Source: Promethearchaeota archaeon
Lineage (GTDB): Archaea > Asgardarchaeota > Lokiarchaeia > Sigyniarchaeales > SOKP01
NCBI GenBank assembly: GCA_008080735.1
Contig: SHMW01000017.1
Span: forward strand, 1 to 14,185
Direction: 5' to 3'
DNA: 14,185 nt
Shown here piece by piece: positions 1,759 to 12,251 of this stretch. The first letter of the stretch is position 1, and every line of letters begins with the position of its first letter. The notes beneath the pieces are model-generated. The model searched no databases. It had not been told where the DNA came from and saw only the letters and a program-made list of their open reading frames with translations. The position numbers and the translations under genes were made by a program.

Positions 1759-2511
1759 ATGAATATCCATTCCTTTTTTATCTTAAAAAAAAGCGGTGCG
1801 TGCATTTATAACAAGAATTTTACCAATGAAATTGACTATAATGTAAATCTAATTACTCCCTTTTTTTCCGCAATTTTTAGTTTTTCAGAGAAGATTATTT
1901 CTCGGGATTTAGAAGTGCTTGAGATGGGGGGATTACGCTTCGTGTTTGAGATAAAGGATGATTTCATTTTCGTTTTATTATCCGATTCGACGGCGAGCAT
2001 CCTCTTTGTCAATACACGATTAGACAAAATTGCAGATATCTTTTTTAAAAAATTTCCTGATACAGAAAAAATACAAGATTATCAGGAGATAGAGGATAAA
2101 GAATTTGATCAGATGGTAGATTCGATTATTGAAGGAGAGGAAGAGATCTTTAAGGAACGCGCTCTTTATGATAAAATGATCAATCTCTTCAAGGACCTGA
2201 TATTTCAAAACGAAATTATCGGAGCGGCAGTATTAGCGACGAATGGAAATATCATCTATTCCTCTCTCCCAAACGAAATTTTACTCAGATCACTTAAAGA
2301 ATTGGAAATCCGGTTTATGACAGGAGCCGTCGAATTACCTGAATTGTTTTACAGCCTCGATGACGGGAGAAAAGTCTTTTCGAAATATGTGAAGATTCCG
2401 TGGAAGATTGATAATTTCCTCATAGTCTTACTATTTGATAAAAATGTCCCTTTAGGAATGGCCGAAATCAACCTGCATAAAGTCTCAAAACAGACCATCA
2501 ACTTGATTTGA
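1759..2511 (+). CDS. Longin-domain / roadblock(LC7)-domain fusion protein
   Basis: The N-terminal ~125 aa show a longin pattern: IHSFFILKKSGACIY, helix TPFFSAIFSFSEKI, LEVLEMGGLRFVF, FIFVLLSD and a closing helix. The C-terminal half shows a roadblock pattern: helix, EIIGAAVLATNGNIIYSSLP, helix, strands LIVLLFDK and helix PLGMAEINL. TATAAA at 1734-1739 is about 25 nt upstream of the ATG. Confidence 0.7.
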   Translation: MNIHSFFILKKSGACIYNKNFTNEIDYNVNLITPFFSAIFSFSEKIISRDLEVLEMGGLRFVFEIKDDFIFVLLSDSTASILFVNTRLDKIADIFFKKFPDTEKIQDYQEIEDKEFDQMVDSIIEGEEEIFKERALYDKMINLFKDLIFQNEIIGAAVLATNGNIIYSSLPNEILLRSLKELEIRFMTGAVELPELFYSLDDGRKVFSKYVKIPWKIDNFLIVLLFDKNVPLGMAEINLHKVSKQTINLI

Positions 2512-3974: not shown

Positions 3975-5441
3975 TCATTTTTCTTTTGTTAGTTTTGTAG
4001 TGACTGGTGTGCATCCCAAGACTTCTTTGAATTTTTTCATAAAGTCCATATCAATAGGCTGACTTGTATCTCCCCACGACATTTCTAGCAATTTTTCTGC
4101 TATTTCTGGAGCCTCCGAAATTATATTCTTTGTTAATTCGGGATCTTTTTCTACGTTATATAGACTCCCGTCCTCTGTATTCCATACATAGCCGTTGTAC
4201 CAATATTTTCCATCATAAACGGCGACCGAACCACCCCAGGCAACCGTCACATGGTCATAATATATAAGTTTATCATTTTCGACTAATTCGAATAAATCTT
4301 TCCCTTCCATATTGCTTGTTGATACTTTGCAAGCCTTGCAGATGGTCGTGCTTATGTCATGATGATAACAGAACTTATCACATGTCTCTCCGCTATGCTT
4401 ACCACCTGGAAATCGGATCATCGCCACAAGATCGGCGACTTCTCGACCAAGAGGATTCGCAGCTTTCGCAATAAGACCGTGTTCTCCCAACATGTGTCCA
4501 TGATCGGATACCACGACTATGATAGAATCATCCCAGATACCGATACGCTTGATATATTCAATAAAATAGCCAAACCAAGTATCTGTAAGGGTTACTTCAG
4601 CAGCATATCGCGTGCGGAGGTTTTTAAGCTCTTGTTCAGAGAGAATACTGGCGGGACCATATAAGGAATGTGTGATTTTACGACATCCTTTTTGCCAATC
4701 CTCATCCTCTTCATACATCCGAATATAATGCATTGGAGGGTTCCATGGCTCATGTGGGTCAAATGACTCTACAGTCAGAAATCCCTTTCCTTCTATTAAA
4801 GTTTCATAATTCATATCCAACCATTCTCCCGCAGCTCGAAAAACTTTCGCTGGAAAGGTGTCCGCTTCAGATTTCCACCAACGGGTATTTTGAAGGAATT
4901 GCTTCATCATAACTTGCGCAAATACGGTACCAGCAGTCACTCCATTCTTTTTTGCCGTAAGATATTGCTCCAATACCTCATTATCCACTTCCGGACCAGA
5001 AAGATAGGCATCTTCTTCCTGTCCTCGAATCCATTGCCATTGGTCGAATCCCCTTTGAAAATTATATCCCGGCTTAAATTGATGATATACATCCGAAAAC
5101 AAAGCTGAAACATATTTTTTACGCCCGAATCGCTCTGCTAGGGTATCGTGAGAATCGGAGATTGTACTCCATCCAGGAGCTCCGAGGGCGTCGCTAATAA
5201 AATCCCCTCGCGGAGTTCTTGTTATGCCCCTATGGTCCTCGTTGAAGGGAAATACACGCCTCCCAGTATAAAGCGCTTTCCGAGCTGGAAGAGTTGGTAA
5301 AGATTCAGGATACATTCGCGTGAATTTCACGGATTCCTCCGCAAATTTATCAAGATTCGGTGTTTTAATCCATTCATTCCCATATGCCCCTACGTGATCT
5401 TGCCGTAGTGTATCTAAAACAATCAAAATCGCGTTAACCAT
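3975..5441 (-). CDS. Sulfatase-like hydrolase (alkaline phosphatase superfamily) with Thr at the nucleophile position
   Basis: ILIVLDTLRQDH, TPNLD, PTLPARKALYTGR, DPHEPW, VVSDHG and LYNVEKDPELTKNI are all typical sulfatase-fold motifs. Confidence 0.85.
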   Translation of the reverse strand: MVNAILIVLDTLRQDHVGAYGNEWIKTPNLDKFAEESVKFTRMYPESLPTLPARKALYTGRRVFPFNEDHRGITRTPRGDFISDALGAPGWSTISDSHDTLAERFGRKKYVSALFSDVYHQFKPGYNFQRGFDQWQWIRGQEEDAYLSGPEVDNEVLEQYLTAKKNGVTAGTVFAQVMMKQFLQNTRWWKSEADTFPAKVFRAAGEWLDMNYETLIEGKGFLTVESFDPHEPWNPPMHYIRMYEEDEDWQKGCRKITHSLYGPASILSEQELKNLRTRYAAEVTLTDTWFGYFIEYIKRIGIWDDSIIVVVSDHGHMLGEHGLIAKAANPLGREVADLVAMIRFPGGKHSGETCDKFCYHHDISTTICKACKVSTSNMEGKDLFELVENDKLIYYDHVTVAWGGSVAVYDGKYWYNGYVWNTEDGSLYNVEKDPELTKNIISEAPEIAEKLLEMSWGDTSQPIDMDFMKKFKEVLGCTPVTTKLTKEK

Positions 5442-5470: not shown

Positions 5471-5791
5471 TTATTAATCTGAGAATTTTTTAATCTACTC
5501 TACTCTAGCTTAAATGATTATATTCAATAATTCGTGCTTTTCTTATTTATATTCTTAGATAGGATCTAAAAAGATATATAATTAAATATGATTTCATGTT
5601 GAAATATACTTTTTAGCCTCCTTTTAATGATAAATAGCATCCTATTTCTTGATAAGAAAATTAGATGATCAGATTTCAATTTTATAAATTACTTTTCGTA
5701 GCAATATAACGAAATTTACACATATGTTAAATTTTTATAATTACGTTATTATGTTAATCACTAAATTAAATAATTATTAAGTGATAAAAAA

Positions 5792-6295
5792 ATGACGATG
5801 GTTTTGGAGAAATCCATTATTTGCAAACTCGGAGGCCATGTTGATTCTAATCCAGAACTAATAATTTCATATCCTCCCTTAGAAGAAACCGATGCAGATT
5901 CTAAAGATTTAATCTATAATTGTTTACCTACGGGATGTAAATCAGGTGATATTGTAATTAAAAAATATGAAAAATTCAGTCTCATTTCCTATATCTTTTC
6001 TCTGAAGAAAGAAATGGCGCGTGATGACTTGTTTTCATTTTCAATTCTATTAAATAAAAAAATTGAGCCAGAAATTTATACATATGTAATGAGACAATTT
6101 ATCGAAATCTTAGAGAATAACAATCTATTATCAGAAAATATTTTAATTAATTATCAAAATCTGATCTATGAGAGCTTTAATGAAGAAAAAGACCTTGATA
6201 TTGATGATAAAACGATTAAATTATCCGATTTATTCGGAAATGCGAAAACTGAGCTTAAAAAGGATAAACCAGATCTGAAAGGTCATTTTTTCTAG
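5792..6295 (+). CDS. Stand-alone uDENN/longin-like domain protein (candidate small-GTPase regulator)
   Basis: uDENN-like pattern: first strand SIICKL, then PELIISYPP, helix ending in NCLPTG (compare the DENN FCFP.G motif), beta hairpin SLISYIFSLKKEMARDDLFSFSILL, and C-terminal helices. An alternative start is ATG 5798. Confidence 0.6.
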   Translation: MTMVLEKSIICKLGGHVDSNPELIISYPPLEETDADSKDLIYNCLPTGCKSGDIVIKKYEKFSLISYIFSLKKEMARDDLFSFSILLNKKIEPEIYTYVMRQFIEILENNNLLSENILINYQNLIYESFNEEKDLDIDDKTIKLSDLFGNAKTELKKDKPDLKGHFF

Positions 6296-6304
6296 GTGGT
6301 GAGC

Positions 6305-6961
6305 ATGATTCGATTAATAACGCAGACAATTGCAAATTGGGCTACCATTATTGTCGCTCCAATTATGACGGTATTAGTAGCCAATAGATTTTGGCAATAT
6401 TACAAAGAAACGGGCAAAATTAACTATATACGACTTAGCATCTTTGCAATCTTTTTAGCGTTCTCTTGGGCAATTATTCCAACAAATCTGTCTGAAGTTC
6501 CACCTTTTGATATTTTTATCAATAAGGATATAATTGGAACGGACGAAGCCACTATTAATCCATATTCGATAGCATTAGGATTAATGGTAAGCTTTTCTTT
6601 ATGTATGATTGCCTATGCGAATCGTTGGGAATCCTTGTATTATGTTCCTTTGTTTTTATATGCGGGTGTAATTATTTCCTATACTCTAAATGATTTTAAT
6701 GATGCTTATTTTATAGTAAATCAGATTTATATCTATGCTGCTGGAGTTTTCGGGGTTATTTTTTTCTATATTACGGGAATACGCTTGAAAGATAATGGAT
6801 CGCTCGGACTTGGGATATTCTTTACCCTTTCATATTCATCTCTAATTGCGGGAGAAAATATAATCGGGGATGTTTTCACACTCCTTATCGGAGTTTTTGG
6901 GCTAATCTTCGCCTTAGGATATTTCTCTCCTTATAAAATATCGGGGGTGGAAGAGAAATGA
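6305..6961 (+). CDS. Integral membrane protein with about 7 TM helices (paralogue A), function unknown
   Basis: Seven hydrophobic segments by eye, with basic loops after TM1 (KETGK), TM3 (NRWE) and TM5 (IRLKD). ATG 6305 is preceded by the SD-like GGTGGTGAG; the ORF track starts at GTG 6296. Confidence 0.75.
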   Translation: MIRLITQTIANWATIIVAPIMTVLVANRFWQYYKETGKINYIRLSIFAIFLAFSWAIIPTNLSEVPPFDIFINKDIIGTDEATINPYSIALGLMVSFSLCMIAYANRWESLYYVPLFLYAGVIISYTLNDFNDAYFIVNQIYIYAAGVFGVIFFYITGIRLKDNGSLGLGIFFTLSYSSLIAGENIIGDVFTLLIGVFGLIFALGYFSPYKISGVEEK

Positions 6962-7596
6962 TTTGGTATATCAGTGTAATAGACTTTTTTATATTAATTC
7001 TTGTTCTCCTTAATGCGTATTTTGGGATAAGAAAATGGAGAGAAAGTAAAATCAATATCAATTTATTTCTCATGATCTTTTTTATAGCGCTTATATTTAC
7101 CGCTTTTAGGCAATTGTTGTTTGGCTTGGGAATATTTCTTGATGTATTTTTTGGTGAGAATTTATCCATCAATGGAATTATTTCATTAATCATTCTATTA
7201 GTTCCAATCCAGTTCTTATTATATTTAAAAGAGTGGAAACGATATTATTATCTCCCACTAATTTTCGCTTTTTATTCCCTCTATAATCTATATTTCGTAC
7301 CAGATAATACCATATTCAGAGTTTCTTCAATAGTGTTAGGAGCAATAGCGTTTACTATCCTCATATTCAATGGAATTAGAAGAAGAAACGGAGTGTCAAT
7401 TTCGATTGGTTTTATCTTTCTGTACGGGTTAGCTTATTCCGAAACGCTTACATTACTCACTGGTGCTATTTCACGTCTTATTGGAGTCTTAGTATTGCTT
7501 TTAGGGACCTCTGGAATACTTGATAAATTCGTTCTGATTGATGATGAAAAAGAGGAAAAAATTAAGAACACTTGGATTGCTAAGATGGTTAAATAA
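6958..7596 (+). CDS. Integral membrane protein with about 7 TM helices (paralogue B), function unknown
   Basis: ATGA overlap with the upstream gene. Seven hydrophobic segments, basic loops RKWRESK, KEWKR and RRRN, and a charged C-terminal tail. Shares collinear motifs with paralogue A. Confidence 0.78.
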   Translation: MIWYISVIDFFILILVLLNAYFGIRKWRESKININLFLMIFFIALIFTAFRQLLFGLGIFLDVFFGENLSINGIISLIILLVPIQFLLYLKEWKRYYYLPLIFAFYSLYNLYFVPDNTIFRVSSIVLGAIAFTILIFNGIRRRNGVSISIGFIFLYGLAYSETLTLLTGAISRLIGVLVLLLGTSGILDKFVLIDDEKEEKIKNTWIAKMVK

Positions 7597-7621
7597 CTTG
7601 TAATTAGTATTAATTTGAAGA

Positions 7622-7650
7622 TTTTTCTTTTTTCTCTTTCTGTTTTTCTT
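7622..7650 (+). terminator. Putative oligo-T terminator after the uDENN-7TM-7TM unit
   Basis: Pyrimidine tract TTTTTCTTTTTTCTCTTTCTGTTTTTCTT about 25 nt after the stop at 7596. Confidence 0.5.
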
Positions 7651-7684
7651 GAAGTTCACATTAGAATTACGACAAAAAACCTTA

Positions 7685-7756
7685 TTGTGTGTTATTGATA
7701 CACAAAAGTGTCATTAAAAATGTATTATAAATACAGGGTATGATAAATTATAAATA
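7685..7756 (+). promoter_or_regulatory. Putative promoter/operator region of the Arf-longin gene
   Basis: Inverted repeats TTGTGT-N9-ACACAA (7685-7705) and TGTATT-ATA-AATACA (7721-7735). TATA-like ATTATAAATA occurs twice (7724-7733 and 7747-7756). Confidence 0.4.
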
Positions 7757-7801
7757 AGGTATATTTCTATTATTAGAAAAAAAGATACTATATTGATTAA
7801 A

Positions 7802-8701
7802 ATGGGTATAAAGAATATACTTCGACGAATTGTAAGTAAAGATAGAAAAATCGTTATCACGGGGTTAGATAATGCTGGGAAGACCACAATGGTGTCCTTT
7901 TTACAAACTGGGACTTTTATTGAACATACACCCACCATGGGAAAAGAGGAGACCACAATTGAAGTTCAAGGCGTACGCATGAATCTTATTGATATGGGTG
8001 GCCAGAAAGATTTTCGCGCAATGTGGCAAGGAGAATTGGATGATGCCCAATTTGCCATATTTATGGTGGATGCCGCAGATAAAGACAGATTTGCAGAGGC
8101 GAAAGAAGAATTATGGAAAATCTCTTCAGTCGTGAAAGAAATTCCTTTAATTGTGCTAGCAAATAAATATGATTTACCAGATGTCGCATCGCTTAGCGAA
8201 ATAATTGAGGCTCTCGATCTACAGAGGCTCTCTTCATTTGAAGTTCTTCCTATTTCTTGTAAAACGGGATATGGAATCGTCAAGGCTTTTAAAAAGATCT
8301 ACTACAAAATGACTGGTGATCAACTAACTAAGAAATTAAGACCGAAAGCAGTGACCATCTTTGACAAGGGCGGAGTTCCATTGACCTCGACCTCATCTGA
8401 TGATGTATTAAAAGGTGGCCTTTTTGCTGCTATAACGAACTTCATCAAGGAATCGTTCAATTCCGAACTGAATCAAATTAAGATTGAGGGAAACACAATA
8501 ATTTTTAAGCGGTCGAATCATCTAATGGGATCAATTGTTATAGATGATACCGAAAATATAGATGCTAAAGAGGCAGAAGATGGTTTAAACGAATTACTCT
8601 GCCACTTGGAAAATATGTGTCCTGAATTAGAGCAAGAAAAACTGGATGAAGAAAAGCTTAAGTTTCTGGTTGAGCAATACTCGACTAATCTGCTTGAATA
8701 A
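7802..8701 (+). CDS. Arf-family-like small GTPase fused to a C-terminal longin-like domain
   Basis: G1 GLDNAGKTT (7862-7888), switch I PTMG, G3 DMGGQ followed by FRAMW, G4 NKYD, G5 SCKTG. N-terminus MGIKNILRRIV from ATG 7802 (track start TTG 7793). The C-terminal ~120 aa contain VTIFDKGGVPL, GGLFAAITNFIKESF and LNQIKIEGNTIIF, a longin pattern. Confidence 0.9.
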   Translation: MGIKNILRRIVSKDRKIVITGLDNAGKTTMVSFLQTGTFIEHTPTMGKEETTIEVQGVRMNLIDMGGQKDFRAMWQGELDDAQFAIFMVDAADKDRFAEAKEELWKISSVVKEIPLIVLANKYDLPDVASLSEIIEALDLQRLSSFEVLPISCKTGYGIVKAFKKIYYKMTGDQLTKKLRPKAVTIFDKGGVPLTSTSSDDVLKGGLFAAITNFIKESFNSELNQIKIEGNTIIFKRSNHLMGSIVIDDTENIDAKEAEDGLNELLCHLENMCPELEQEKLDEEKLKFLVEQYSTNLLE

Positions 8702-11756: not shown

Positions 11757-12251
11757 TTACATTTCCTTATGTCTGAATTTTTGGGCAATTCTTCTGGCAA
11801 GAGTTACTTGTTCTCGTGATTCTAAAGAGCATTTTCTAAAAGACCGGATCCATTTCACGGGATCCATATCTTTCGGAATATATCCATAATAAGAACCCCA
11901 TGCGACCAACATTTGTCCAGTTCTTCCACATCCTGCTACACAATGCACCACAATGGGCTCTTTTCTTGCATGATGATACTCGGTAATTTTCAGAAATCGA
12001 TTAATTTGCTCCTCTGTCGGAGTCCCATAATCAGGGATATTGATATGATAATAATGAAATCCATCGGGAATATCATTTCGATTGTTGAATTCTGAGCAGT
12101 TAATAATCACCTTTATCCCTTCTTCCCTATAGATATCAAACACATAAGGGTCGGGCCACCAACTTGCGGCAATCTTTTCTGTTTCTATCCACGTAAAAGG
12201 TTCTGTTCGATGAGGTTGTCCCCCTTCTGGCCAATACCAAGGTCTCACCAT
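11757..12251 (-). CDS. Dual-specificity protein phosphatase (PTP/DSP superfamily, DUSP23/CDC14-like)
   Basis: Catalytic P-loop HCVAGCGRTG (CX5R), general-acid loop IPDYGTP, N-terminal FTWI..KIAA..P, and C-terminal R..SLESREQ. Confidence 0.92.
   Translation of the reverse strand: MVRPWYWPEGGQPHRTEPFTWIETEKIAASWWPDPYVFDIYREEGIKVIINCSEFNNRNDIPDGFHYYHINIPDYGTPTEEQINRFLKITEYHHARKEPIVVHCVAGCGRTGQMLVAWGSYYGYIPKDMDPVKWIRSFRKCSLESREQVTLARRIAQKFRHKEM

Follow-up and report, generated by a model that had tools for sequence, protein, structure and literature searches.

A conserved Asgard gene cassette that links a small GTPase of the Arf family to an NPRL2-like longin protein and two seven-helix membrane proteins

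Within a 14,185-nucleotide stretch of DNA from a Promethearchaeota archaeon (contig SHMW01000017.1; C17:1-14185 in our numbering), placed in the Lokiarchaeia (Promethearchaeia) by what its nearest relatives are called, hereafter the window, lies a cassette of four genes that encode a stand-alone NPRL2-like longin protein (gene 1), two paralogous seven-helix membrane proteins (TMA and TMB) and an Arf-family GTPase. Across Asgard genomes these components behave as a set in inheritance, duplication and rearrangement. Dozens of eukaryote-like small GTPases are encoded in Asgard archaea along with longin and roadblock proteins, which raises the question of which regulator serves which GTPase. We propose, and give the proposal an even chance, that the cassette is an Arf-type membrane switch in which the NPRL2-like longin supplies the off-step through Arg77, on a longin-longin platform formed with the GTPase tail and assembled on the seven-transmembrane (7TM) pair. 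The parts are known as families, and prokaryotic operons that combine a GTPase with a roadblock/longin regulator are a known kind of arrangement. The cassette as a unit was not known to have been described when the window was first annotated, and keyword searches of the papers that could be searched, key ones among them, found no description of it.

The linkage is already evident in the window's own genome (4.1 Mb, 93% complete), where a small-GTPase G-domain model matches 64 frames. Only two of these belong to the cassette GTPase subfamily (266 and 255 bits, with the next at 77), and both adjoin gene 1, TMA and TMB, each of which has no further copy in the genome beyond these two, giving a 1:1:1:1 relation; the second cassette lies on contig C7, with its GTPase divergently upstream. 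Of 400 genomes of the phylum, 69 have gene 1 and 61 have the GTPase subfamily. Taking a GTPase as linked when its contig holds a gene-1 homologue no more than 1.6 kb away, we find linkage for 48 of the 52 full-length GTPases of the subfamily. Among the exceptions, one (G282) has an adjacent gene-1 fragment below the cut-off used, two (G202 and G173) seem to be cut by the end of a contig, and the last (G254) is without a gene-1 match in a genome that is 79% complete. Linkage on this scale is far beyond chance. Conservation of the neighbourhood across Asgard genomes, a check put forward by the initial annotation, is borne out by these counts, and the cassette extends beyond Lokiarchaeia in a simpler form. 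Pairwise distances co-vary most strongly between gene 1 and the GTPase (r 0.86-0.90, values inflated by shared ancestry). The expectation that the four gene trees would cluster alike within the family was set aside; they are only partly concordant.

Within the taxonomic family of the window, 28 of 29 further loci carry gene 1, TMA and TMB in that order, and the GTPase is present in all loci that have enough flank. Wherever a locus is long enough to tell, TMB almost always comes after TMA. The GTPase occurs in three positions: downstream (gap about 200-265 bp), divergently upstream, or co-oriented upstream, the last being 16-68 bp away or overlapping and found in two sister families and some members of the window's family. 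Cultured Candidatus Lokiarchaeum ossiferum B-35 carries a single cassette that reads GTPase, gene 1 (NEF87_004542), TMA, TMB, and in some loci whole cassettes are duplicated. In the Heimdall-type loci (a naming taken from MCE7741483.1), a stand-alone Arf protein (about 175 residues) comes closely after a gene-1 homologue and precedes a protein of 6-7 transmembrane helices (about 277 residues), and proteins with a longin-like N-terminus are encoded nearby. We therefore take longin plus Arf to be the conserved core; membrane proteins are attached to it in every lineage examined. One Heimdall-type locus (L056:3127-7855, genome G014) encodes, all on one strand, a 218-residue longin-like protein, a six-helix membrane protein, the gene-1 homologue, the stand-alone Arf, another six-helix protein and a 452-residue protein with a longin-like N-terminus.

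The AlphaFold2 (AF2) model of gene 1 (predicted local distance difference test, pLDDT, 85; predicted template modelling score, pTM, 0.80) has the order beta-beta-alpha-beta-beta-beta-alpha of a longin fold, followed by helices and a hairpin. Its top Foldseek matches are the NPRL2/Npr2 chains of GATOR1 and SEAC (E 4e-5 to 9e-4, template modelling score about 0.6). VIA likewise places NPRL2 8fw5_B (Z 13.6, 154 aligned residues, model 4-167 to chain 6-172) and Npr2 8adl_S (Z 12.5, model 1-167 to Npr2 7-241) above a Loki roadblock-longin protein (Z 10.7), DENND10 (9.5), DENND1A (8.6), Lst4 (8.4) and FLCN (8.2). Both match lists consist largely of longin proteins. A second domain after the longin, whether the NPRL2 C-terminal domain or DENN, is absent, the protein ending at residue 167 after a short helical/hairpin extension. 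No Pfam family reaches threshold for gene 1; the uDENN profile matches 2 of 18 members, the best at E 0.0056 and below threshold. The initial annotation had called this protein a uDENN/longin regulator. Its longin fold, of the type found in GTPase-activating protein (GAP) longins, is upheld, whereas the DENN assignment is not (NPRL2 Z 13.6 vs DENN Z 8.6-9.5, and no DENN core domain), and "NPRL2-like longin" suits gene 1 better than "uDENN" because the NPRL2/Npr2 scores exceed the DENN scores.

At the sequence level the gene-1 family is confined to Asgard-type sequences (18 close homologues, and 91 representatives when matches at E up to 1e-3 are counted) that with few exceptions have 155-180 residues, and its profile found only chance matches among PDB sequences. 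A "DUF835" label in UniRef on the L. ossiferum homologue was rejected, as no Pfam match bears it out. Arg77 is invariant in all 18 close homologues and is also kept in the L. ossiferum and Heimdall-type homologues, always with D or N after it. By the aligned ranges of the structural matches, it falls ~1-3 residues from NPRL2 Arg78 and Npr2 Arg84. PMC8213707 cites Arg78 as the arginine used by NPRL2, and Npr2 uses Arg84 with Asn85 as an auxiliary residue (PMC12999518). We count the agreement between the Arg77-D/N pair of gene 1 and R84-N85 of Npr2 in favour of a GAP role. N-terminally extended gene-1 variants also exist (P0030; G273:C111:17719-18153; G278:C37:10164-10577), and P0030 has a zinc-ribbon-like N-terminus and a replacement of the invariant arginine (NGKEELFSFS).

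The cassette GTPase matches Pfam Arf (PF00025) at 127.4 bits over residues 6-167 (cut-off 22.3), and its L. ossiferum orthologue does so at 126.8 bits. Among PDB sequences it is closest to 8oun and 8oum, whose deposited name is just "GTP-binding protein", and next to Arf1 and Arl3, with 8oul and 8ouk ("Arf GTPase") also among the top 60; these four entries are probably the Asgard ArfR structures. Among 10 orthologues the motifs GLDNAGKT (G1), DMGGQ with catalytic Gln68 (G3) and NKYD (G4) are invariant. The N-terminus appears modestly amphipathic: the N-terminal 12-mer of the window protein has a hydrophobic moment of 0.70 and a net charge of +4, with 6% of shuffles reaching that moment, and for the 12-residue segment after Gly2 the values range over 0.6-0.7 (moment) and +2 to +4 (net charge), with 5-14% of shuffles reaching such a moment. 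PMC11914678 sets a requirement of 18 residues, which this segment falls short of.

The C-terminal tail of the GTPase is harder to place. Pfam Fuz_longin_1 matches it in 3 of 11 members (best E 0.0068), hhalign relates it to the N-domain of a family of 250-residue longin-like proteins encoded upstream in the window (E 3e-4, probability 39%), and a hidden Markov model of the tail matches the N-termini of other longin-like frames in the same genome. Leads from the ESM Atlas are Fuz_longin_1 and Roadblock clusters (0.86-0.88), and the tail profile found only chance matches among PDB sequences. Residues 183-299 thus look weakly longin-like by pattern and profiles. The earlier designation "Arf-longin GTPase" is secure in its Arf part (127 bits, motifs); the tail is longin-like by weak profile matches, not by fold. 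An hhalign match of the tail to the gene-1 alignment was discarded as an artefact of a fusion protein in that alignment, no relation being left once the fusion was removed. Free tail frames corresponding to the last 110-150 residues occur in several family-level relatives (G233:C83:77108-77548, G247:C158:4822-5178, G171:C332:2966-3412, G175:C221:21091-21516, G272:C5:81335-81661), and one of them carries stop codons.

TMA and TMB each have seven predicted helices, in agreement with their earlier description as 7TM proteins. The AF2 model of TMA is a seven-helix bundle (pLDDT 94), and all 50 of its 50 best VIA rows are 7TM domains of G protein-coupled receptors (GPCRs), led by ADGRL3 (Z 15.4, root-mean-square deviation 4.1 over 191 residues). 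GPR155/LYCHOS, which binds GATOR1, matches at Z 10.1, a score that does not set it apart from many other receptors. Foldseek matches are weak (E about 1e-2) and are GPCRs throughout; for helical bundles, Z scores of this size show a common arrangement rather than homology. Pfam gave no family for TMA at E up to 0.1, receptor families included, and the ESM Atlas gave no named family, its neighbours being unnamed archaeal clusters. An analogy to PQLC2 drawn in the initial annotation finds no support: the TMA model matches GPCR 7TM domains, there is no Pfam PQ-loop match, and no PQ-loop chain is among the structural matches listed by Foldseek and VIA. Sequence comparison marks TMA and TMB as paralogues that have diverged (the stretches W-x-x-YY-x-PL and G-I-R-x-(K/R)-(D/N)-G align in BLASTP at E 4e-4), and TMB hydropathy gives about seven segments. 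The positive-inside rule predicts an N-out/C-in topology. Their cytoplasmic loops and tail are conserved at 1.9-2.5 bits, compared with 1.0-1.2 bits for the outer loops, and this bias toward the cytoplasmic side fits a conserved cytosolic partner.

We propose that the GTPase would cycle at the membrane, with its short basic, apparently amphipathic N-terminus, the 7TM pair or both as the platform. For its partner the stand-alone longin would have the longin-like domain at the C-terminus of the GTPase itself, much as NPRL2 pairs with NPRL3 or SMCR8 with C9orf72. In such a complex, Arg77 of gene 1 would be inserted next to the conserved catalytic Gln68 and would speed GTP hydrolysis, making gene 1 a GAP and the off-switch. 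The TMA-TMB pair, with its best-conserved loops facing the cytoplasm, would hold or regulate the complex. In the window's family, the separate, putative and conserved promoter may set GTPase dosage independently; in the sister families, the GTPase is directly upstream and probably co-transcribed. All of these contacts and activities are ones that we infer, as is the order from membrane sensor to longin regulator to Arf switch that the initial annotation offered. A hint that the two longins may act together comes from the sequence of YT6_002, a metagenome-assembled genome of a congener, where the sole gene-1 copy is fused in frame to the GTPase longin-like tail (275 residues; L008:6001-6828, also L016, on contig JAEOUA010000002). 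That genome is without a G domain of the subfamily and without both 7TM genes.

This proposal has its closest counterpart in GATOR1/SEACIT, where NPRL2/Npr2 acts on RagA/Gtr1. Gene 1 shares with NPRL2/Npr2 the longin fold, its best structural match being the NPRL2 N-lobe, and an invariant arginine with a D/N neighbour that the aligned ranges place in the equivalent loop. The cassette also offers a second longin-like domain as partner, an Arf/Rag-like substrate candidate and a membrane setting. Unlike NPRL2, gene 1 has only 167 residues, with neither a C-terminal or DENN-like domain nor a DEPDC5-like subunit; in contrast to GATOR1, the cassette has its second longin-like domain joined to the GTPase itself, the gene-1 family rarely retains the GP dipeptide, and there is no sequence-level relation. 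Other systems of this kind are FLCN-FNIP, which acts on RagC, and C9orf72-SMCR8, which acts on Arf1.

Several points weigh against this mechanism. Longin domains are more often platforms for guanine nucleotide exchange factors (GEFs) than GAPs. Arg77, a candidate finger, is matched to that of NPRL2 by aligned ranges rather than by a superposition. The "GP" motif reported before the second strand of GAP longins (PMC12290439) is rarely kept as a full dipeptide, although a Pro or Gly stays at the position: it reads S-N-P-E in the Loki-type homologues, G-(L/I)-E in most Heimdall-type homologues and G-P in two. The Heimdall-type 7TM proteins have no profile similarity to TMA/TMB (hhalign probability 1.6%), which may mean that a membrane part was acquired on more than one occasion. 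Tandem cassettes can apparently exchange TM pairs and longin/GTPase pairs: at one locus with two tandem cassettes (L004/L066, G275:C373), the gene 1 and GTPase most like the window's sit with a TMA/TMB pair most like that of the second cassette in the window's genome, and this mismatch suggests exchange of TM pairs between tandem copies. The YT6_002 fusion may be a decaying remnant because its genome lost the G domain and the 7TM genes. Lastly, terminator-like T tracts indicate that in the window locus the GTPase is probably a separate transcript.

It is also possible, if unlikely, that the 7TM pair is a true receptor with a GPCR fold that acts as exchange factor for the Arf-family GTPase, the longin being an off-switch like a regulator of G protein signalling (RGS). 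The uniformly GPCR character of the 50 best TMA matches speaks for such a receptor, as do the conservation of intracellular loops 2 and 3 (ICL2, ICL3) and the tail at the positions of receptor-G protein contact, sub-threshold Pfam G-alpha matches of the GTPase, and a membrane protein linkage that is kept in several classes. However, the Foldseek E of about 1e-2 is weak, a Z of 15 for a helical bundle is near the range in which only arrangement is shared, no sequence relation ties TMA to any GPCR family, and the outer loops are short, with no ligand-binding domain. We judge with equal reserve the alternative that the gene-1 longin is a GEF or scaffold, as in Mon1-Ccz1, TRAPP and DENN proteins, with Arg77 in a structural role. 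GEF platforms account for the majority of the longin or DENN regulators that have been characterised; DENND10, DENND1A and Mon1-Ccz1 match the gene-1 model at Z 7-9.5, and the rarity of an intact GP motif would be in keeping with this reading. What favours the GAP assignment over this alternative is that NPRL2 (Z 13.6) and Npr2 (Z 12.5) score above all others (10.7 and below) and that a loop arginine invariant across classes, with its D/N neighbour, is what would be expected of a finger.

Two further explanations are less probable. The cassette could be a device for targeting or sorting membrane proteins, similar to SR-beta/SRX, with the 7TM proteins as clients or anchor. SR-beta, an Arf-like GTPase, pairs with the longin-fold SRX domain of SR-alpha, and Pfam SRPRB matches the cassette GTPase above its cut-off (37.9 bits vs 25). 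The Arf profile scores far higher (127 bits), however, the GTPase is without a transmembrane anchor, and nothing ties the locus to genes of the signal recognition particle (SRP) or translocon; we hold this explanation to be very improbable. Less probable still is that the genes are conserved neighbours with no function in common. In favour of this, related genomes account for many of the loci, and the upstream gene for the 250-residue longin-like protein is syntenic too, but the linkage outlasts inversions, reordering, block duplication and class-level divergence, and the copy numbers match exactly.

Other prokaryotic systems invite comparison. MglA-MglB and the actinobacterial conservon are bacterial operons that join a Ras-superfamily GTPase to a regulator of the roadblock/longin superfamily, the conservon adding a membrane sensor. 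Unlike these, the cassette has an NPRL2-like longin in place of a roadblock protein and an Arf in place of an MglA/Ras-like GTPase, and the membrane part of the conservon is a histidine-kinase-like sensor, not a 7TM pair. With the 7TM domains of adhesion, class B and class C GPCRs, the TMA model shares the same helix arrangement, and the side-by-side TMA/TMB paralogues recall class C dimers. Unlike GPCRs, TMA and TMB are only 212-218 residues long, with no ligand-binding ectodomain and no sequence relation. Among Asgard Arf GTPases, ArfR (bioRxiv 10.1101/2024.02.28.582541) and AArf (PMC11914678) resemble the cassette GTPase in belonging to the Arf Pfam family and perhaps in having an amphipathic N-terminus, whereas the cassette GTPase has a C-terminal longin-like domain and fixed neighbour genes; a keyword search of these two papers found no mention of an operon or gene neighbourhood. 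Liu et al. (bioRxiv 10.1101/2020.10.19.343400) describe an Asgard operon of a LAMTOR1-like roadblock protein, a Rab-like GTPase and a DENN protein. This too is a conserved Asgard neighbourhood joining a small GTPase to regulators of the longin/roadblock superfamily, but the cassette has an Arf and not a Rab-like GTPase, another regulator, and membrane proteins. That paper already lists NPRL2-like longin families in Asgard archaea and places most such genes outside conserved neighbourhoods.

The cassette bears on a matter that earlier studies have raised. According to PMC10933270, GTPase genes of MK-D1 do not as a rule share an operon with longin or roadblock genes, and gene order is seldom a help in pairing GTPases with regulators. 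PMC11914678 notes that Asgard Arf proteins still lack identified native regulators, and PMC12290439 asks with which GTPases the GAP-like longins of Asgard archaea work. The cassette gives a specific and testable answer, consisting of a single Arf subfamily, a single NPRL2-like longin that carries a candidate finger, and putative partners in the membrane. Archaeal Arf switches thereby gain candidate native partners, and the cassette occurs in a cultured organism, Ca. L. ossiferum. If the longin is a GAP, longin-based control of GTPases at membranes would predate eukaryotes. If instead the 7TM pair is a receptor for the Arf GTPase, the cassette would be an archaeal receptor, G protein and GAP circuit predating eukaryotes, and would bear on how GPCR-G-alpha signalling, or nutrient sensing at membranes of the LYCHOS-GATOR1-Rag type, began.

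Coordinates of the cassette and associated features are collected in Table 1.

Table 1. Features of the cassette and its surroundings in the window.
Feature	Position	Strand	Description
Gene 1	5792-6295	+	167 aa (amino acids), stand-alone NPRL2-like longin protein
Gene-1 Arg77 codon	6020..6022	+	candidate arginine finger, beta4-beta5 loop, R-D-D
TMA	6296..6961	+	218 aa from ATG 6305; alternative start GTG 6296; 7-helix membrane protein
TMB	6958-7596	+	212 aa, diverged TMA paralogue
Spacer, TMB to GTPase	7597-7801	+	205 bp
Oligo-T tracts in spacer	7620-7651	+	sequence reading, directly 3' of TMB
Inverted repeat in spacer	7685-7705	+	TTGTGT-N9-ACACAA; sequence reading, upstream of GTPase
TATA-like boxes in spacer	about 7723-7760	+	sequence reading, before GTPase
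GTPase gene	7802-8701	+	299 aa
GTPase G domain, Arf family	7802..8326	+	short basic, apparently amphipathic N-terminus MGIKNILRRIVSK
GTPase C-terminal longin-like domain	8348..8698	+	about 117 aa, residues 183-299; weak profile evidence
250-aa longin-like protein	1759..2511	+	conserved neighbour; sub-threshold Pfam Fuz_longin_1 and Sybindin matches

The four genes, at 5792-8701, are co-oriented, and their junctions as first annotated agree with the list of open reading frames and with our reading of the sequence. TMA may start at ATG 6305 or at GTG 6296, because the Shine-Dalgarno-like GGTGGTGA terminates just 2 nt 5' of the ATG; the GTG sits immediately 3' of the gene-1 stop. TMB starts in an ATGA at 6958-6961 that overlaps the TMA stop. 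For the GTPase we prefer ATG 7802 to TTG 7793, because all orthologues have the N-terminus MG(I/V)K.

The spacer between TMB and the GTPase had been flagged as holding a probable terminator and a separate promoter, a caveat that is reasonable because T tracts and TATA-like boxes are present and the layout is kept in relatives. Most family-level relatives keep the T tracts together with a core, TGTGGCAACATAACA, that lies ~110-125 nt 5' of the GTPase start. The promoter and terminator functions are thus putative, as read from sequence. Relatives conserve the core of the inverted repeat on the GTPase side. A second inverted repeat of the same 6+9+6 form, TTTCGT-N9-ACGAAA, occurs at 5694-5714 upstream of gene 1 and was seen in the window only. 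Each of the two repeats lies ~20-30 nt 5' of a TATA-like box, and both may be operator sites. An operator common to the gene-1 and GTPase promoters was rejected, only the GTPase-side element recurring in relatives.

The gene for the 250-residue longin-like protein is ~1.5 kb upstream of gene 1 in seven related loci; it was not found beside the second cassette copy in L004 nor beside the Ca. L. ossiferum cassette. Its longin-like domain is at the N-terminus, several paralogues are present in the window's genome, and this neighbour is possibly just syntenic with the cassette. Between an FAD oxidoreductase gene and gene 1 lies a sulfatase-family gene (3975-5441, minus strand), which looks inserted because the same block is ~1.5 kb shorter in related loci. 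A gene for a dual-specificity/tyrosine phosphatase-like protein (Pfam Tc-R-P, PTP-SAK, DSPc) is at 11757-12251 on the minus strand, 3 kb downstream of the cassette.

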